A DNA stretch of 64,000 nucleotides from contig JAHDCD010000001.1 in NCBI GenBank assembly GCA_020630095.1, forward strand, positions 133,698-197,697, read 5' to 3'. The stretch's first letter is position 1; every line of letters begins with the position of its first letter. Positions 7,514-57,952 of this stretch are shown piece by piece. Source of the DNA: Rickettsiales bacterium. GTDB taxonomy: Bacteria > Pseudomonadota > Alphaproteobacteria > Rickettsiales > UBA8987. The notes beneath the pieces were generated by a model that worked only from the letters and a program-made list of their open reading frames with translations, was not told the origin of the DNA and made no database searches. The translations under genes were made by a program, and so were the position numbers.

Positions 7514-7598
7514 TGCGGTAATTGTTTACTTATTCATGCGGTTTTATTCAAGAAAAACCTTGCATAAGATGAGATTTTTGTACTATATATGTTGCACT

Positions 7599-8141
7599 AT
7601 GTCTTTAACTATTAAACAGAAAGAAGTTGCAGTTTGGTTAGTTGATAATACTACCCTTACTTTTGAACAAATTGCCGAATTTTGTAATCTACACCCTGTA
7701 GAGGTGCGTGGTATTGCTGATGGTGAGGTTGCAGCTAACTTTATGGGTGCTAACCCTGTTGGGCAAAAAATGATCTCTCTGGAGAATCTTGAAGATGCTC
7801 AAAAGGATAAAAATGTTGCACTTAAATTATTACCTGAGTTTGCGGCATATTTAAAATCTAATGAGAAGAAAACTTCTCGCTATACTCCGATTGCTCGTAG
7901 GCAGGATAAGCCAGATGCAATCTTATGGTTATTAAAGAAATATCCGACTATTAATGATTCGCAAATTTCGAAGTTAATAGGTACTACTAAGAAAACTATT
8001 ACTTCTATTCGTGATAAATCTCATAGTAAGTATCAGCAGTTAAAGCCTAAAGATCCTGTATTATTAGGTCTTTGTGGTCAGTCTGCGCTTAATATTGTTG
8101 CTGAAAAATTAGAAAAAGCGGCTGATAAAGAGTCTGCTTAA
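7599..8141 (+). CDS. trcR: DUF1013-family cell-cycle transcriptional regulator (TrcR-like)
   Basis: VAVWLVDNTTLTFEQIAEFCNLHPVEVRGIADGE matches the alphaproteobacterial DUF1013 N-terminus. ATG at 7599 is preferred over the ORF-track start at 7536. TTGCAT (7560) and TATATA (7584) lie 9 nt before the ATG. Confidence 0.7.
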   Translation: MSLTIKQKEVAVWLVDNTTLTFEQIAEFCNLHPVEVRGIADGEVAANFMGANPVGQKMISLENLEDAQKDKNVALKLLPEFAAYLKSNEKKTSRYTPIARRQDKPDAILWLLKKYPTINDSQISKLIGTTKKTITSIRDKSHSKYQQLKPKDPVLLGLCGQSALNIVAEKLEKAADKESA

Positions 8142-16022: not shown

Positions 16023-17024
16023 ATGAAAAAGAATGTTATATTTATGGGGAGTCCTGATTTTGCGGTGCCAGCGTTGCAGGCTCTTATTGATGATTCCGGT
16101 ATAGAGGTTATTGCGTGTTTTTCTCAGCCGCCGCGTGAGGCTAATAGGGGGAAGAAAATCACTAAAACGCCTATTCATAAATTAGCAGAGGCGAATGATA
16201 TTGAAGTTCACACGCCTGTGAAGCTTAAAAACGTCATTCCTGCGTCTTATTTTGAATCTTTTAAGCATACGCAGGATGCGTCATTCGCCGACTTGATCGG
16301 CGAATCTAGAAATTGGACTATGGATTCGCCGATCAAGTCGGCGAATGACAAGTTAATTATTAAGGGTAATGTCACTTATATAAACTTGGTTGAATCTATG
16401 AAGCCGGATTTTATTTGTGTTGCGGCATATGGTTTAATATTACCAAAGAGCTTTTTAGACATTGCACCTTGTTTGAATATTCATCCATCTAAGTTGCCAA
16501 GATGGCGCGGTGCTGCGCCTATTCAGCGTACTATTATGGCAGGTGATACAGAAACTTCATGTTGTATTATGGATATGGATGTTGGATTAGATACTGGCGA
16601 TATTTTAATCGAAGAGGATTATAATATTCCGGCGAATTATACGGCGGGTGAATTGCATGATTACATGGCAAGTAAAGGTGGTGAGCTTTTATTAAAGGTA
16701 ATTGAAGGTTATAAAAATATTACTCCGCGTAAGCAATCGGAGCAGGGAGTTACGTATGCCCATAAAATTAAAAAATCTGATACTGAATTGAAGCTAGATG
16801 AGATTACGGCAGATGAAGCTAGAAATTTAATATTAGGTTTATCGCCGTATCCTGCGGCATGGGTTATGCATAATGAAAAACGTTTAAAGATATTAGCGTT
16901 ATCAAGTGAAGATGAAGGGGTTTCATTAGACTGTAAAGTTGGTTCTATTTATCCATCTTTAGTTCAGCCAGAGGGTAAAAAGCCAATGGATATAAAGGCT
17001 TATCTTAACGGCTTGCGTAGTTAA
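16023..17024 (+). CDS. fmt: Methionyl-tRNA formyltransferase carrying a 39-codon palindromic-element insertion
   Basis: FMGSPDFAVPALQAL..., AAYGLILPK, HPSKLPRWRGAAPIQRTIMAGD. The ATG directly follows the TAG of the ATPase gene. Confidence 0.9.
   Translation: MKKNVIFMGSPDFAVPALQALIDDSGIEVIACFSQPPREANRGKKITKTPIHKLAEANDIEVHTPVKLKNVIPASYFESFKHTQDASFADLIGESRNWTMDSPIKSANDKLIIKGNVTYINLVESMKPDFICVAAYGLILPKSFLDIAPCLNIHPSKLPRWRGAAPIQRTIMAGDTETSCCIMDMDVGLDTGDILIEEDYNIPANYTAGELHDYMASKGGELLLKVIEGYKNITPRKQSEQGVTYAHKIKKSDTELKLDEITADEARNLILGLSPYPAAWVMHNEKRLKILALSSEDEGVSLDCKVGSIYPSLVQPEGKKPMDIKAYLNGLRS
16233..16349. repeat. RPE-like palindromic elements (47 + 70 nt) inserted in frame in fmt
   Basis: 16233-16279: gtcattcctgcgt...acgcaggatgc. 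16280-16349: perfect 27-bp arms gtcattcgccgacttgatcggcgaatc / gattcgccgatcaagtcggcgaatgac. Total 117 nt = 39 codons. Confidence 0.8.
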
Positions 17025-19858: not shown

Positions 19859-20572
19859 CTACTTAATCAAAGTAAAATTACCTTCGCCATTTACGGCTTT
19901 ACCGAATGCGCCTTTATCGCGGATGCTAAATACGGATATTGGCATGTTATTATCGCGGGCGATTGCGATTGCTGCGCCGTCCATAACTTTTAAGTTTTTT
20001 TCTAGTACAGTTTTATAATCTACTTCTCCATAGCGCTTAGCATCTGGATTAGTTTTTGGGTCGCTACAATATACGCCATCAACTTGCGTGCCTTTTAATA
20101 GCATTTCACAGTTAAGTTCAACTGCACGAAGTGCGGCGGCTGAATCTGTTGTGAAATATGGGTTACCTGTACCTGCGGCGCAGATAATAATTCTACCGCG
20201 CTCCATGTGGCGTTTAGCGCGGCGACGAATAAATGGTTCGCAAACGGCATTCATAGTAATGGCTGAAAGAACGCGCGTTTCAACGTCCATTTTTTCTAAA
20301 GTATTTTGCAGAGCTATTGCATTCATAACAGTTGCTAGCATTCCCATGTAGTCTGCTGAGGCTCTGTCCATCCCTGCTTTTGCCATGGTTTGACCGCGAA
20401 AAATATTTCCACCGCCAACTACAATTGCTACTTCGTTGCCGGCATCTTTTACGGCTTTAATTTCTTCGCATATTATTTTTAATGTTGATAATGAATGGCC
20501 GAAGTCATCGTCACCCATTAAAGATTCGCCAGATAGTTTAAGTAGCACACGTTTCATAATAATTCTAGTCAT
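19859..20572 (-). CDS. pyrH: UMP kinase
   Basis: [35 protein letters not shown]. An alternative ATG lies at 20557. Confidence 0.95.
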
Positions 20573-20642
20573 GTCATTCCCGCGAAGGCGGGAATCTCAT
20601 AACAAGATTTTCAAGGGAGATTCCCGCCTTCGCGGGAATGAC
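20573..20642. repeat. RPE-like 70-nt palindromic element (intergenic, pyrH/serC)
   Basis: Perfect 24-bp arms gtcattcccgcgaaggcgggaatc / gattcccgccttcgcgggaatgac around a 22-nt loop. This is the source of the spurious SFPRRRES...RLRGNDN ORF 20436..20657. Confidence 0.85.
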
Positions 20643-20653
20643 AACATCTATCT

Positions 20654-21829: not shown

Positions 21830-21883
21830 GCAGTAATATTTAACAAGATGCCTAAATTATGCAATTATTCTTTATAATTAATT

Positions 21884-22148
21884 CAATTTTCTCAAATATA
21901 GAAAATCTTTTAAGTGTATAAATTTGAAAAAATAATATTTTAAGGGTGTTTTAGGTAGGAAATCCTTATATTTCAATGTATCGCGTTATATTTAAGGCAA
22001 AATAAGTATAAAAAAATGGTAAAAAACGTTCATTTTTTTACGTTTTTTAAGCAAAAACCTGAATTTTTATTGAGGAGATTTACTTTTTGAAGGTGGATTA
22101 ACGATGTAATTAAAATATATAGCCGAGTTTATTTACTGGAAGAGGGGA
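21884..22148. repeat. Dispersed ~260-bp non-coding repeat, copy R1
   Basis: Collinear blocks shared with 52541..52797: aattttc..aatatagaaaat, aaaaaataatattt, cttatatttcaat, tataaaaaatggt, aaaaaacgttca...cgttttttaa, acgatgt, ggaag. Confidence 0.6.
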
Positions 22149-25116: not shown

Positions 25117-25194
25117 GTAATAAGTAATATATAGTGAGATATACCTTTTGGTGTGGCAATAATATGGGTTATTAATGGCTTAATTTCAAGTGTG

Positions 25195-28017
25195 ATGAAT
25201 AAATTTTTTATAAAAATCCTTAGTTTAATTTGTGTGGTTTCTATTATTTTAACCACAAGCCCCGAGTTTGGAAGGGCGAACGAGTATTTTGACTACGATA
25301 CTGTTAGTAGAAATAATACTAATCCTAGGCTTATTCAAGCTGCGGCATATGGTAATATTGCAATTGTAGAGCAAGAGTTGTTGGCAGGTGCAAATGTTAA
25401 TATGATAGGTGTGTCGGGTACAACGGCATTAATGCAGGCTGCGTATAATAACGACTTTGAAATGACTGAGTTTTTAATTCAGTCGGGTGCTAGCCTTGAC
25501 CAACGTGATAGAAATCAACGTACGGCGGCGGAATATGCGGCGGCGGCTGACAATGTGCGTATGATAGAGCTTTTAGGTGCGTATGGTGCGGATATTGATA
25601 AATTTATAGTAGGAAAAACAGATTATGGCAGTTTATTATATACAACATTAGGTGTTGTAGCTGTTTTAGCGGCTGCGGGTGCTTTAGGTACAGATGGAGA
25701 GCCGGAAGATTCTACTGGCGGTGGTGGTACAACGCCAACTGTTCCTACGCCAGACCCAGGAACTGGCGGTTCAACGCCAACTGGGAATGTGGTTATTCCC
25801 GTTGCTCCGGAATCTGGAACGGCCTCAACATTTGAAGACACTGAATATGGAACTTCTGGTGCGCATGCCATTGTAAATGCCTCAGCAGCTTATGCGCGTG
25901 GTTATGATGGCTCTGTATTTACTCGTGATGCTGATGGTGCAAACCCTGTATTGGATGCATCTAAGGCTGTTAGGGTTGCGGTAATTGATGGTGGCATTGA
26001 TATTCATCATACAGATTTAGACGATAATTTAGCTACAACAGGCGCTAGGTGTTTAACATCGGGGTGCTTTGGTGATGGTGATGCTAGTGCATCCGAAGAT
26101 AATCATGGTACATTAGTTTCTTCATTAATTTTAGGTGAAGATAATAATTCCGGTGCAATGGGTATTGCGCCTGATGCAAAATTAATTCCTATCAATGCAA
26201 TTACGGCGGGTGGCTCAACTTCACGTGCGTTTGCTCATGCGGTGGGTAATGGCGCAGATATTATTAATAATAGTTGGGGTATTACAGATTTAGCTGGTAG
26301 AGAGGTGTATATTGCTGGCAATTCTACCGCAGCGGATGCTCAAGCCGCATTTAGTGGTGAAAATCAATTTAATGGTATTACGGATGGCGTTAACAATGGC
26401 TCTGTATTTGTATTTGCTACAGGTAATAGTGGTAATTCTGAACCGAATATAGTTGCTGGCTTACCTTTCTATTTTAATGGTGCGGCTAATAATGGTATCA
26501 ATACTTCAAATGTAGATTTACGTAATAATTGGATTGCAGTTGGTGCGTATAGCGCATCTGGTACGAATAATTTAGCATCGTTCTCTAATGCTTGCGGTGT
26601 GGCTAAAGATTGGTGTTTAGTTGCCCCTGGTTCTAGCTTAACGGGTGCGGCTAATGGTGGTGCAACTACTGGGTCATCGGCTACAACATCTGAAACTGGT
26701 ACAAGTTTTGCGGCGCCTGTAGTTTCTGGTGCATTGGCAGTTGTAATGGGTGCGTTCCCGCATTTATCAACTGAGCAGGCGGCTAGTATTTTGTTACAAA
26801 CGGCTACAGATTTAGGTCCGGCGGGTGTTGATGAATTTACGGGGCATGGTTTATTAAATTTAGATTCTGCAACTACACCAGGTGGTTCATTTGTTGTACC
26901 TACGGGCGGTAGTGCAGGTGTTTCACAATTTAGTGCAACGGGTACGGGGTTGGCATTTGGTAGAGCTTCAGCCAGTGCAGTTGGTTCGGAGAACAAGTTA
27001 ATGGTTATAGATTACCTTGGGCGTAATACATATATTGATGTGAATGATTTTACTTCATCTAGCAATGAGCGCTCAGAAAGCGTGAATGATTTATATAATA
27101 AATTCTCTAACAATCCTGATATTGAATTTAACGATGGTAAAACGGAATTTACATTAACAACGCGTTTACAGAATCGTGATGAGCTTGATAGATTTTCAGA
27201 GGAAGATTTACAAGGTTTCCAATATAAAGAGCAATTAAACAAGAAGACTAAGGTGGGTTTTGCCTATAACATGCCAGTTGATAATTCTGGCATTGGTTTG
27301 AATCAGTCTGATAATATACTTAGTTTAGCTGAGAAAGGGTATTCAGCTTCAATTGAAGGGCAGGGCTATAAGTTAGGTTTATTCAATGGGGAGTCACTTG
27401 ATAATGAAGATATTAAGTCTTCAGGTATTTATGTGGAGCAGGATATTGCTAAAAATATTTCATTCATTGGTGGTATTATTAATGAAGAGAATAGTTTTGT
27501 AGGTAATGCATCTTCTGGTGCATTGGAAGTTGGTGAGGATAATATTACTGCATTTTATGGTTTGAAAGGTGGTTATGATTATTCACCGAATCTTTCATTT
27601 AACGCGGAAGCTATTTTAGCTAATACGGAGCTTTCGGATGCTCCAACGAGTTCATTGGTTAATGGTGCTAGTGACATTATGTCGTCGTCATTCAAGCTTG
27701 GTGCGGCGTATAATGGTTTATTTAAAGCTAATGATAATTTCTCTTTAAACATTGCTCAGCCGTTAAAGGTAGAGCAGGGTACGCTTAATATTGCTACGCC
27801 AACATCTATTTCGGCTGATGGTTCTATTGGTTATGAGAATGATAATTTAAACTTAGCTTCAGATGCTAGGCAGGTGGATTTAGGTTTTGATTATAACCTA
27901 AACTTTGGTCTTGGTACTTCATTAAAAGCGGGTGCTATATTAAAAATGAATCCTAATCATTCATCGGATTACGAGAATGAATCGACAGGCTTCATAAGAT
28001 TGCAGCATAATTTCTAG
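25195..28017 (+). CDS. Ankyrin-repeat / subtilisin-like (S8) serine protease autotransporter
   Basis: Signal peptide MNKFFIKILSLICVVSIILT. About 3 ANK repeats (25321..25602), then a hydrophobic helix and a Gly/Thr/Pro linker. S8 triad contexts VAVIDGGID, HGTLVSS, GTSFAAPVVSG. C-terminal beta-barrel ending LQHNF. The ORF extends to a GTG at 25153. Confidence 0.8.
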   Translation: MNKFFIKILSLICVVSIILTTSPEFGRANEYFDYDTVSRNNTNPRLIQAAAYGNIAIVEQELLAGANVNMIGVSGTTALMQAAYNNDFEMTEFLIQSGASLDQRDRNQRTAAEYAAAADNVRMIELLGAYGADIDKFIVGKTDYGSLLYTTLGVVAVLAAAGALGTDGEPEDSTGGGGTTPTVPTPDPGTGGSTPTGNVVIPVAPESGTASTFEDTEYGTSGAHAIVNASAAYARGYDGSVFTRDADGANPVLDASKAVRVAVIDGGIDIHHTDLDDNLATTGARCLTSGCFGDGDASASEDNHGTLVSSLILGEDNNSGAMGIAPDAKLIPINAITAGGSTSRAFAHAVGNGADIINNSWGITDLAGREVYIAGNSTAADAQAAFSGENQFNGITDGVNNGSVFVFATGNSGNSEPNIVAGLPFYFNGAANNGINTSNVDLRNNWIAVGAYSASGTNNLASFSNACGVAKDWCLVAPGSSLTGAANGGATTGSSATTSETGTSFAAPVVSGALAVVMGAFPHLSTEQAASILLQTATDLGPAGVDEFTGHGLLNLDSATTPGGSFVVPTGGSAGVSQFSATGTGLAFGRASASAVGSENKLMVIDYLGRNTYIDVNDFTSSSNERSESVNDLYNKFSNNPDIEFNDGKTEFTLTTRLQNRDELDRFSEEDLQGFQYKEQLNKKTKVGFAYNMPVDNSGIGLNQSDNILSLAEKGYSASIEGQGYKLGLFNGESLDNEDIKSSGIYVEQDIAKNISFIGGIINEENSFVGNASSGALEVGEDNITAFYGLKGGYDYSPNLSFNAEAILANTELSDAPTSSLVNGASDIMSSSFKLGAAYNGLFKANDNFSLNIAQPLKVEQGTLNIATPTSISADGSIGYENDNLNLASDARQVDLGFDYNLNFGLGTSLKAGAILKMNPNHSSDYENESTGFIRLQHNF

Positions 28018-28030
28018 AATATTTTATAAA

Positions 28031-28223
28031 GCGAACGAATGTGAGTGGTGGGGGCAGAGGGCCTTAGCGGCTATGCCGCCATTTAATAATACAAGTACAT
28101 CTGTACCTAATACGAACGAATGTGAGTGGTAGGGGCAGAGGGCCTTAGCGGCTATGCCGCCATTTAATAATACAAGTACATCTGTACCTAATACGAACGA
28201 ATGTGAGTGGTAGGGGCAGAGGG
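28031..28223. repeat. 81-bp tandem repeat re-copying the 3' end of tRNA-Met
   Basis: Units begin at 28032, 28113 and 28194 (period 81). Each contains tggt(a/g)ggggcagaggg, the complement of the tRNA 3' end CCCTCTGCCCCTACCA, plus the same 65-nt spacer with hairpin gcggc-tat-gccgc. Confidence 0.85.
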
Positions 28224-28284
28224 ACTTGAACCCCCGACAAAGACGTTATGAGCGTCCTGCTCTAACCAACTGAGCTATGCCCCT
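28208..28284 (-). tRNA. tRNA-Met (anticodon CAT; elongator type, or possibly tRNA-Ile2)
   Basis: Manual cloverleaf: AGGGGCA-TA-GCTC-AGTTGGTTA-GAGC-A-GGACG-CTCATAA-CGTCT-TTGTC-GGGGG-TTCAAGT-CCCTC-TGCCCCT-A-CCA, 77 nt. Confidence 0.85.
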
Positions 28285-40210: not shown

Positions 40211-40603
40211 ATGAAAAAATTATTTTTAGCATTAGTATTAACTACAGGTTTAGTATCTACAGCAGAAGCTAGAGACTTCAATGGTGATGGCATTATTACA
40301 GTTGAAGAGGCTAAACAATTCAGAGCAAATTATGACACTGATGGTGATGGCAAGCTTTCTAAAACTGAAAGAGCGCCTTTAAGAGAAAAAGCTAAGGAAA
40401 GACGTTCTGTAGTTAGAGATAAATTTGATGCAGATGGTTCTGGTAAGCTTAATAAAGAGGAGAGAAAAGCGGCTAGAGAATATAGAAAAGAAAACCGCCC
40501 TAAATTAAGCGATGAACTTAGAGAAAAAACTAAGGAAAGACGTGCTAAGCGTAAAGATAAACGAAAAGAACGCAGAGCTCAAAGGCGTGGTAATGTTAAC
40601 TAG
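40211..40603 (+). CDS. Secreted EF-hand-like calcium-binding protein
   Basis: Signal peptide. Three DxDxDG-type loops (DFNGDGIITVEE, DTDGDGKLSKTE, DADGSGKLNKEE). Arg/Lys-rich tail. Confidence 0.65.
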   Translation: MKKLFLALVLTTGLVSTAEARDFNGDGIITVEEAKQFRANYDTDGDGKLSKTERAPLREKAKERRSVVRDKFDADGSGKLNKEERKAAREYRKENRPKLSDELREKTKERRAKRKDKRKERRAQRRGNVN

Positions 40604-49789: not shown

Positions 49790-49822
49790 AATCCGTTTTG
49801 TATGACGGATTATTATATTTTT
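49790..49822 (+). terminator. Possible terminator hairpin
   Basis: atccgt-tttgtatg-acggat followed by tattatattttt. Confidence 0.35.
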
Positions 49823-50033
49823 AATGCGGGTAGTTGGCTGCCCCGCCGCGAGTAGCGGCAATTAAATAATCACTCAGCCATTTATACAATGAGTGTTATT
49901 TTATTTTTTAAATTATCTCTACGGAATAATTTATTAACGCGGGTAGTTGGCTGAGTGCCCCGCGCCGTACAGGCGCAATCGAATAGTTCGAGCACTCAGA
50001 CAACTTTTTGTTGTTTTATATTATCTTAAATGC
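49823..50033 (+). repeat. Two pseudo-copies of the tRNA-Ser 5' end with embedded GC hairpins
   Basis: aatgcgggtagttggctg at 49823 and aacgcgggtagttggctgagtg at 49936 copy the tRNA 5' flank plus positions 1-12 and 1-16. Each continues with cccc-hairpin-aa (gccgc gagta gcggc / gcgcc gtaca ggcgc). Confidence 0.8.
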
Positions 50034-50123
50034 GGGTAGTTGGCTGAGTGGTCGAAAGCACTAGTCTTGAAAACTAGCGAGGGGGCAACTCCTCCGGGGG
50101 TTCGAATCCCTCACTGCCCGCCA
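50034..50123 (+). tRNA. tRNA-Ser (anticodon TGA)
   Basis: GGGTAGT acceptor stem, D arm GCT/AGC, anticodon arm CTAGT-CTTGAAA-ACTAG, long variable arm GAGG...CCTC, T arm GGGGG-TTCGAAT-CCCTC, ACTGCCC-G-CCA. 90 nt. Confidence 0.9.
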
Positions 50124-50297
50124 TTTTCTCTTCCACTAACATCCTATAAAGTCCATTAAATCCTTGTATATCAACGGCTACATCATTTTCTCTGTCCATA
50201 GAGGTTTACTATTGTCCAGTGACATCTAGTATAAATGAGGGGTAAAATGGAGGGGTAAAATTACCCACTATATTTTTTACCCTTCATTTATTAGAAA

Positions 50298-50876
50298 ATG
50301 AAGCTAACGGACATTAAAATAAAATCTATTAAACCACCTATAGATAAAGCAAAGGAATCTTATGTAGATGGAGACGGCTTGCGTTTGATTGTAACTAACA
50401 AAGGCGGTAAATACTGGGAGTTTCGATATACCTACAACAACAAGCCAGACTCGCTTAATCTTGGTAAATATCCACATATTAGCCTTGCAGATGCACGAGA
50501 GAAGCGAAATGAGTTTAAAAAGCAGCTTGCTCACGGTGTAGACATTAAAGCCAATATTAGACAAGAGAAGCAATCTAAAGCTCTATCTGATGCTATTACC
50601 TTTGAAGTTATCGCTAGAGAGTGGCACGAGAAGAAACGCGAAGAATGGACAGAAAGGCACTCTAAATACGTTCTAAGACGCTTAGAAGCCGATTTATTCC
50701 CTGCTATTGGTTCAATGCCCATTAATACAATTACTACCGTAGACTTCTTAAACGCTCTTAGGGTAGTAGAAAAGCGAGGTGCATACGATATTACAAAGCG
50801 TATGCGTCAGACAGGTGGGCAGATATTCCGCTACGCTGTTGCAACTGGTAGAGCCGAGCGAGATAGCCAACTGTAA
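50298..50876 (+). pseudogene. Truncated P4/CP4-57-type tyrosine integrase (N-terminal arm-binding and core-binding part only)
   Basis: LTDIKIKSIKPP...DGDGLRLIVTNKGGKYWEFRY (DUF4102-like) and the SAM-like region up to ATGRAERD, then SQL-stop. The catalytic domain is absent. Lies 175 nt downstream of tRNA-Ser. Confidence 0.8.
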
Positions 50877-50954
50877 TACCAAGGGGGCTTGCCCCGTGGA
50901 TCGTTTACTATAATATTTGTTGCATCTCGTTACTATCAGTTTTAGGAGTTTATT

Positions 50955-52538: not shown

Positions 52539-52540
52539 TT

Positions 52541-52797
52541 GAATTTTCCAGAATATAGAAAATTTATTTTATTCTAAAAATTTTAAAAAATAATATTTAG
52601 AGGCTGGAATCTAAAAAAATCTTTATATTTCAATAGACCTTAGGATTTATCCTATAAAAAATGGTTTAAAAAACGTTCAAAAATGGGCGTTTTTTAACAA
52701 AAAATGACGATTTTTTTAATAAAATCATACATTCCTTTTTGGTTATTCACGATGTTGAGTTGATATTATCACGTAGAATATACTCCGGAAGTGATGT
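52541..52797. repeat. Dispersed ~260-bp non-coding repeat, copy R2
   Basis: Same ordered sequence blocks as 21884..22148, in direct orientation. Contains the conserved hairpin aaaaaacg...cgtttttt. Confidence 0.6.
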
Positions 52798-57604: not shown

Positions 57605-57678
57605 GGCCCGGTAGCAAAGTGGTAATGCAGGGGATTGCAAATCCTCGATCGTCGGTTCGATTCCGTCCCGGGCCTCCA
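57605..57678 (+). tRNA. tRNA-Cys (anticodon GCA)
   Basis: GGCCCGG acceptor stem, 3-bp D stem, anticodon arm GGGGA-TTGCAAA-TCCTC, T arm GTCGG-TTCGATT-CCGTC (one U-U mismatch), CCGGGCC-T-CCA. 74 nt. Confidence 0.8.
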
Positions 57679-57952
57679 TAAGGATTAGTTTTCCTTTATA
57701 TATTTTATCAGATTTTCATTTGATTGCGACTGCTCGCCGCGGGGCGTCGGTTCGATTTCGTCCCGGGCCTCCATAAGGATTAGTTTTCCTTTATATATTT
57801 TATCAGATTTTCATTTGATTGCGACTGCTCGCCGCGGGGCGTCGGTTCGATTTCGTCCCGGGCCTCCATTTTCTTTCTTTTGAAGTTTTTAATATATCGG
57901 CTTGTATAGCAGTTGTTTCTAGTGGGCGTTGGTTTGAGTTCGTCCTGAGTCT
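57650..57952 (+). repeat. 95-bp tandem repeat re-copying the 3' end of tRNA-Cys
   Basis: cgtcggttcgatt(c/t)cgtcccgggcctcca occurs at 57650 (the real tRNA), 57745 and 57840, with an identical 66-nt spacer. A degenerate fourth copy lies at 57924-57952. Confidence 0.85.

Follow-up and report, generated by a model that had tools for sequence, protein, structure and literature searches.

Displaced tRNA-gene ends and a shared 27-nt hairpin module in a Rickettsiales genome: possible scars of site-specific integration into tRNA genes

The window (the whole 64,000-nt stretch of DNA that was analysed) contains three intact tRNA genes, and beside each of them one end of the gene is repeated. The original prediction had claimed such end-duplications for all three tRNAs of the window, and fragment repeats at tRNA-Ser, tRNA-Cys and tRNA-Met confirmed this. 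Each repeat consists of a tRNA fragment plus gene-external flank in direct orientation, successive repeats are separated by 63–96 nt of non-tRNA DNA, and the native T-rich or AT-rich flank adjoins the outermost fragment copy only. ARAGORN and Rfam RF00005 detected just the three intact tRNA genes at E up to 10. For the pseudo-copies, the suggested covariance-model check was negative, since none of them matched an Rfam family with E relaxed to 10. The features at the tRNA-Ser locus are as follows.

50034–50123, plus strand: intact tRNA-Ser(TGA) (ARAGORN; Rfam, 59.3 bits)
49810–49840, plus strand: Ser unit 1, the outermost displaced 5' fragment, with AT-rich upstream flank at 49810–49827 and tRNA-Ser positions 1–13 at 49828–49840
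49841–49867, plus strand: 27-nt module, Ser variant 1, CCCC GCCGC GAGTA GCGGC AATTAAAT, with the hairpin at 49845–49859
49871–49880, plus strand: inverted copy of tRNA-Ser positions 8–17, CACTCAGCCA (10/10, p = 0.003)
49923–49957, plus strand: Ser unit 2, with upstream flank at 49923–49940 and tRNA-Ser positions 1–17 at 49941–49957
49958–49984, plus strand: 27-nt module, Ser variant 2, CCCC GCGCC GTACA GGCGC AATCGAAT, with the hairpin at 49962–49976
49987–50005, plus strand: inverted copy of tRNA-Ser positions 5–23, TTCGAGCACTCAGACAACT (17/19, no gaps, p<0.003)
49997–50024, plus strand: best sigma-70-like promoter match for the intact tRNA-Ser, CAGACA-16-TATTAT (a consensus match only)

The two upstream copies of the 5' flank and start of tRNA-Ser that had been described before were confirmed, with tRNA fragments of 13 and 17 nt. 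Both fragments are identical to the gene (13/13 in unit 1 and 17/17 in unit 2), and the AT-rich flanks upstream of them resemble the real upstream region of tRNA-Ser, with mismatches at 4/18 and 11/18 positions, respectively. The contrast between 0/30 mismatches in the fragments and 15/36 in the adjacent flanks (Fisher p = 4e-5) bears out the earlier statement that the copies do not reflect plain decay. With fragments unchanged and flanks diverged, the signal of constraint is stronger in the Ser fragments than in the hairpin stems. The 15-mer GCGGGTAGTTGGCTG, which joins 2 flank bases to tRNA-Ser positions 1–13, occurs three times on the plus strand, at 49826, 49939 and 50032, the last of these being the start of tRNA-Ser itself; about 0.6 matches with at most 3 mismatches are expected by chance. 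Unit 1 lacks the AGTG present in the fragment of unit 2, and the two units are strongly diverged from each other, both in the module (18/27 identical) and, through indels, elsewhere. Directly after each fragment, a CCCC-stem-loop-stem-AA sequence was read at 49841–49861 and 49958–49978, as originally reported, with a 5-bp GC stem and a 5-nt G...A loop.

Beyond the hairpin, copy 2 had been thought to resume tRNA-like sequence. This segment is actually the reverse complement of tRNA-Ser positions 5–23, and without its module unit 2 reads as tRNA positions 1–23, then TAG, then the reverse complement of positions 23–5. In the predicted fold of unit 2, TTCGAGCACTCAGACAACT pairs with 49945–49958 and closes a three-way junction; the ctgagtgc/gcactcag stem around two hairpins that had been proposed for this copy was recovered as its predicted minimum-energy fold (−33.6 kcal/mol, z = −4.2). 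The inverted copy CACTCAGCCA of unit 1 sits within a predicted AU-rich hairpin (49865–49900), next to which a T-run extends to about 49912. T-runs thus lie 3' of both inverted copies. The sequence directly 3' of TTCGAGCACTCAGACAACT is TTTTTGTTGTTTT, at 50006–50018, and the long stem of unit 2 is followed by T5GTTGT4, its branched loop falling outside the rules of the terminator scanner. The −35 hexamer of the promoter match lies within the inverted copy of unit 2. The pseudo-copies were also considered as internally deleted whole tRNA genes, a derivation that was rejected because the inserts are not significantly similar to the parent tRNA in forward orientation (p = 0.07–0.7).

The other two tRNA genes carry their arrays on the 3' side.

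57605–57678, plus strand: intact tRNA-Cys(GCA) (ARAGORN, Rfam)
57679–57868, plus strand: two 95-nt tandem units 3' of tRNA-Cys, each a 66-nt insert that ends in the module, followed by a 29-nt tRNA-Cys copy
57718–57744, minus strand: 27-nt module, Cys copy 1, CCCC GCGGC GAGCA GTCGC AATCAAAT
57813–57839, minus strand: 27-nt module, Cys copy 2, of the same sequence as Cys copy 1
57924–57952, plus strand: probable third, decayed tRNA-Cys 3' fragment (23/29 identical, p = 0.025)
28208–28284, minus strand: intact tRNA-Met(CAT) (ARAGORN, Rfam)
28027–28207, minus strand: two 81-nt tandem units 3' of tRNA-Met, each with a GC hairpin and a copy of the tRNA-Met end

At tRNA-Cys, positions 46–74 of the gene (29 nt) are copied at 57745–57773 and 57840–57868 in units that are 99% identical. 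The probable third, decayed fragment, which lies beyond the two fresh units, suggests an older event at the same site. At tRNA-Met, the hairpin GCGGC-TAT-GCCGC (28067–28079 and 28148–28160) is separated by 2–5 nt from a repeat of the gene's 3' end, comprising the 16 terminal nt of the tRNA and 14 nt of 3' flank, and the similarity of this hairpin to the module is only loose (p = 0.058). Across the Cys and Met arrays, units are 96–99% identical within each array. Their inserts are foreign to the tRNA and without inverted copies, and no canonical terminator was found between either gene and its array. T-stem position 61 is C in the intact tRNA-Cys (57650–57678), where it forms a G-C pair, and T in both displaced copies (G·T); the T-stem of the intact tRNA-Cys also has a U50·U64 mismatch.

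The main fact missed by the original prediction is that the hairpin at tRNA-Ser is part of a 27-nt module common to the 3' repeats of tRNA-Cys. A pattern built from the two Ser copies matches twice more, at the two minus-strand Cys copies (0.03 expected by chance). Each Ser copy is identical to the Cys sequence at 22/27 positions (p<0.002, local alignment). Since the Ser copies share fewer positions with each other than with the Cys copy, the latter looks, from these alignments, near the common ancestor of the module copies. The Ser and Cys inserts resemble each other from position 0 of the junction, the base next to the tRNA fragment, up to nt 27, with CCCC and the GCAAT..AAT tail conserved and the loop and the stem variable. 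At both loci the module abuts the displaced tRNA fragment, which it always faces; its strand is sense to the tRNA at Ser and antisense at Cys, and the looser Met hairpin is likewise antisense. Because this orientation is mirrored between Ser and Cys, the module follows the DNA junction and not the direction of transcription.

All four module copies in the window lie at tRNA-fragment junctions, and a covariance model made from them finds just those four in the 64 kb, the Met hairpin not being recovered. The window has no excess of short GC hairpins (13, against 3–13 in shuffles, mean about 8), and on these two grounds the idea that the module belongs to a genome-wide GC cluster was rejected. 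The hairpin is followed by the A-rich AATTAAAT, AATCGAAT or AATCAAAT and not by a U-run. A terminator, a hammerhead-like ribozyme or another known RNA was likewise dismissed, with no Rfam support. As a separate observation, the module tail (C)GCAAT(T/C)AAAT (49861–49870 and 57718–57727) matches 10–11 nt in the tyrV-distal repeats of E. coli, T/C variants included.

Is the stem selected as RNA? On the CCCC strand, 15/15 stem cells of the three distinct variants pair. As had been noted before, the two Ser stems differ by two compensated swaps, with 2/5 pairs changed on both sides, and one pair in the Cys copy is G·T (G·U in RNA). This fourth pair of the Cys stem, G·T on the minus strand, is an A·C mismatch on the opposite strand, and on the sense strand of tRNA-Cys the mismatched module stem is not a predicted fold. 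The pairing result was equalled by 57/500 shuffles, with n = 3 distinct variants, and the stability of the hairpin is ordinary for its composition (z = −1 to −2.5). In addition, template switching during replication can give rise to compensated changes in stems, and to reverse-complement repeats, with no selection involved (PMC8794818). Preserved pairing in three variants thus does not prove selection on RNA: the compensatory differences on which the original prediction was built are real, and its step from them to RNA selection is limited by the number of variants, the shuffles, the ordinary stability and the template-switching alternative. Overall, the feature is genuine, is not due to chance and extends further than first described, and the geometry of the module points to an origin by recombination or insertion, not to a structured pseudo-tRNA RNA.

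The reading to which we give most weight, with a probability slightly below even, is that the arrays are products of DNA-level recombination: site-specific integration into tRNA genes would have left them as reiterated attachment-site scars or as mini-elements without genes. A small DNA carrying a tRNA-identical segment beside a module-bearing arm would enter the gene, with crossover in the D-loop (Ser), at the variable-loop/T-stem boundary (Cys) or in the T-loop (Met). The intact tRNA would be rebuilt from the copy of the element, the original end would be pushed outward, and the hairpin would be retained as a piece of the recombination arm. The elements would have decayed to, or would always have been, gene-less units of ~80–115 bp, comparable to cis-mobilizable elements (CIMEs). 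Growth may have proceeded by a second integration at Ser, with its diverged units, and by unequal crossover between the 29–30-nt repeats at Cys and Met, with their 96–99% identical units. Two further steps would apply to Ser only. An element on the 5' side must bring a promoter, and the match at 49997–50024 in unit 2 may be the promoter that it supplied to the rebuilt tRNA; the inverted copy and its T-run may pair with the displaced 5' fragment and so end transcripts from the displaced promoter.

The features of att duplication are present: a direct repeat identical to the terminal part of the tRNA, a regenerated intact gene, and foreign DNA between repeats whose outermost copy alone meets the native flank. 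Because the inserts are foreign and the native flank lies beyond the outermost copy only, local duplication cannot explain the first unit. The outermost copies, namely the third Cys copy and Ser unit 1, are the most decayed. At Ser and Cys, the module begins precisely where the inner edge of each displaced fragment stops, and the sharp limits of the similarity, from position 0 to nt 27, are the behaviour of a defined element end. The unchanged Ser fragments beside mismatched flanks fit recombination cores that every event resets. For Met and Cys, the breakpoints lie within the T-arm or at its edge, a classical integrase sublocation. Tandem accretion and decay to gene-less, att-bounded elements have been documented (PMC5704250). 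Integration at the 5' side of a tRNA gene is known but rare (PMC6563490, citing Zhao and Williams 2002), and the Ser array has this rare 5' polarity.

A remnant of a P4-type island occupies 50124–50900, at the 3' end of tRNA-Ser, which has therefore been an integration target. It contains arm-type direct repeats, GAGGGGTAAAAT (two copies plus one inverted, about 50240–50291), and an integrase gene (50298–50876) that retains the arm-binding and central domains only; the GC palindrome CCAAGGGGGCTTGCCCCGTGG at 50880–50900 marks the point of truncation. Matches to the integrase of this remnant are at most 51% identical and come from unrelated bacteria, and no attR copy of the tRNA-Ser 3' end was found in the window for this 3' island.

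Several points count against integration. No integrase or other recombinase was found within the arrays or next to them; the window has just one, the truncated gene 3' of tRNA-Ser. Units of 81–113 bp are too small for easy circularisation as double-stranded DNA, and it would be surprising for decay to have reached such similar sizes three times independently. A single module combined with three different tRNA cores is unusual for the attP sites of tyrosine integrases. The Met hairpin is only loosely similar to the module and was missed by the covariance model. Finally, there is no full-length parent element, empty site or close relative to compare with, and no true module match was found in genome, metagenome, viral, plasmid or phage collections. 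The pattern CCCCGCNNCGNNNAGNNGCAATNNAAT, scanned against public genome, metagenome and viral collections, gave 13 genome, 25 metagenome and 0 viral matches; these were rejected as chance, since the GC content of their contigs (0.41–0.68) is higher than that of the window and in none are both variable pairs complementary. No further exact-pattern module was found in the rest of the source genome, provided that this genome is in the scanned collection. The tRNA-fragment patterns had 0 matches in viral contigs, and blastn found no match of the Ser units to plasmids or of the Cys units to phages. The best non-self match of the FolD protein of the window is 67% identical, which leaves the genome with no close relative; contigs of FolD relatives share the FolD-ExoD synteny and have no comparable tRNA locus, so that the suggested comparison with relatives yielded no counterpart. 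The evidence base is one window of one genome without relatives.

A bolder form of the integration reading, which we hold to be rather unlikely, is that the units represent a new family of ~80–115 bp non-autonomous integrative elements, or products of structure-guided insertion, that home to the 5' or 3' end of tRNA genes, rebuild the gene and carry a 27-nt hairpin terminus at the crossover. Viewed on the module strand, 3/3 targets look similar: sequence of the acceptor strand leads into a stem-loop arm, and the break lies within that arm or directly behind it. Such likeness of the targets would fit recognition of the shape of a tRNA gene over that of one sequence.

Among known systems, reiterated att sites, tandem accretion and CIMEs share with the present arrays direct repeats of a tRNA end that bound foreign DNA, a regenerated gene, the oldest copy in the outermost position and tandem gene-less remnants (PMC5704250). 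CIMEs and islands are, however, kilobases long and derive from identifiable ICEs or IMEs, whereas the inserts here are of 63–96 nt, with no integrase and no identifiable parent. Integron attC sites also have conserved flanking motifs around a variable stem in which complementarity is kept, and they too form unit boundaries in tandem arrays. Unlike attC sites, the module has no R''/R' core motifs (RYYYAAC/GTTRRRY), its stem is of only 5 bp, and tRNA fragments delimit the units; the window has neither an integron integrase nor an attI. REP/BIME, RPE and MITE sequences resemble the module as short GC-rich hairpins in an AT-rich genome, but the module is not dispersed, occurring only at tRNA-fragment junctions, and has neither terminal inverted repeats nor a short target duplication.

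The closest known anatomy is that of the 178-bp repeats distal to E. coli tyrT. In the tyrV-distal region of E. coli (NC_000913, read directly), 178-bp units repeat the 3'-terminal 19 nt of tRNA-Tyr together with flank, and a 5-bp GC hairpin, AGCGC-GCA-GCGCT, lies 4 nt ahead of each tRNA fragment. As here, tandem units beside the tRNA carry a terminal segment with gene-external flank, and the native flank comes after a last copy that is partial. The units described here are half as long (81–113 nt), the Ser array lies on the 5' side as a mirror image, and the junction module is common to different tRNA loci; these last two properties are new relative to tyrT-type repeats. There is no sequence or covariance-model similarity to the tyrT/tyrV-distal region (rtT, tpr), and the Rfam rtT family was not matched at its gathering threshold or at E up to 10. 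Homology to rtT through GCAAT(T/C)AAAT was considered and set aside as probably chance (p = 0.02–0.09).

This resemblance raises a rather unlikely alternative to integration, namely that the repeats are cis-acting leaders or trailers of the tRNA transcription units, of the rtT kind, which are co-transcribed and in which the tRNA end and hairpin have a role in processing, in termination or in insulating the promoter; how the first unit arose is left aside. Beyond the shared layout, this explanation draws on the Ser units, which lie on the tRNA strand with −10-like hexamers at the same offset as in the real gene and with long stems followed by T-runs, and on the likely read-through into the Cys and Met arrays, given that no canonical terminator precedes them. 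It is contradicted by the strand of the module, sense at Ser and antisense at Cys as in the Met hairpin, with an A·C mismatch in a stem that is not a predicted fold on the Cys sense strand. The A-rich instead of U-rich sequence after the hairpin and the lack of rtT among the Rfam matches at E up to 10 also speak against it.

Somewhat less probable again is a neutral origin, in which replication errors at tRNA genes under heavy transcription produced the features. Here, fold-back template switching and slippage would have generated the repeats, small palindromes would be kept perfect, and neither a function nor a mobile element would be involved. The direct-inverted-direct pattern at Ser is as expected of a template switch, a process that is documented (PMC8794818), and the same genome has a palindrome family with conserved flanks and differing self-complementary cores. 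Replication errors leave unexplained, however, how a 27-nt non-tRNA module came to lie at two loci 7.7 kb apart, on opposite strands and with an exact junction start. Equally unexplained are the foreign Cys and Met inserts that lack inverted copies, and the perfect fragments beside diverged flanks.

The units could also encode small structured RNAs, complementary to the neighbouring tRNA and acting in trans as decoys or regulators of tRNA-targeting factors. The CCCC strand does contain antisense segments (17/19 at Ser, 28/29 at Cys, and 16 nt plus flank at Met), all stem cells pair on this strand, one G·U included, and Ser unit 2 folds beyond its shuffles (z = −4.2). We nevertheless regard this as improbable: promoter-like sites on the required strand were not found at Cys, there are 0 Rfam matches, conservation outside this genome was not found, and with n = 3 variants the covariation is non-significant (57/500). 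That the tandem repeats arose artefactually in the assembly of a draft or metagenome-derived genome, as the lack of a close relative and the 99% identity of the Cys units might suggest, is very improbable given the strong divergence of the Ser units in the module (18/27) and through indels, the recurrence of the same architecture at three separate loci and the fixed C/T difference between real and displaced Cys fragments.

Should the arrays prove to be miniature integrative elements, no smaller att-bounded mobile units would have been described. One element end would then serve several tRNA targets and both gene polarities, which bears on target switching by integrases, and a possible origin would be at hand for the long-unexplained tyrT-type repeats. 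If they are scars only, they show that, in an unsampled host-associated lineage, tRNA genes have repeatedly served as sites of integration, and they advise caution, in that compensated hairpin changes near repeats need not mean a functional RNA.

Some other features of the window deserve mention. Two perfect palindromic elements of ~70 nt are present, one inside fmt (16280–16349, within the ORF 16023–17024) and one intergenic (20572–20643). Both have the flanks GTCATTC...GAATC, around the differing self-complementary GC cores GCCGACTTGATCGGC and CCGCGAAGGCGG. The first is in frame in fmt, which encodes methionyl-tRNA formyltransferase, and the ORF stays open at 333 aa; 224 residues of the product align to the 181-position model of the N-terminal domain. 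In this respect the palindrome resembles Rickettsia palindromic elements. The intergenic palindrome contains ATTCCC-N8-GGGAAT, which resembles the dRS3 repeat of Neisseria. An AT-rich element of ~130–170 nt is common to the intergenic regions 21880–22070 and 52540–52715, which lie 30.6 kb apart, with a mean column identity of 78%, and may be a dispersed promoter, regulatory or small-RNA element. The window also encodes a 954-aa ankyrin-repeat subtilase (25153–28017), an EF-hand protein (40211–40603) and a TrcR-family regulator (7536–8141). The TrcR family is associated with alphaproteobacteria; the nearest FolD matches are gammaproteobacterial. Together with a GC content of about 37% and the lack of close relatives, these three proteins suggest a host-associated bacterium of a poorly sampled lineage.
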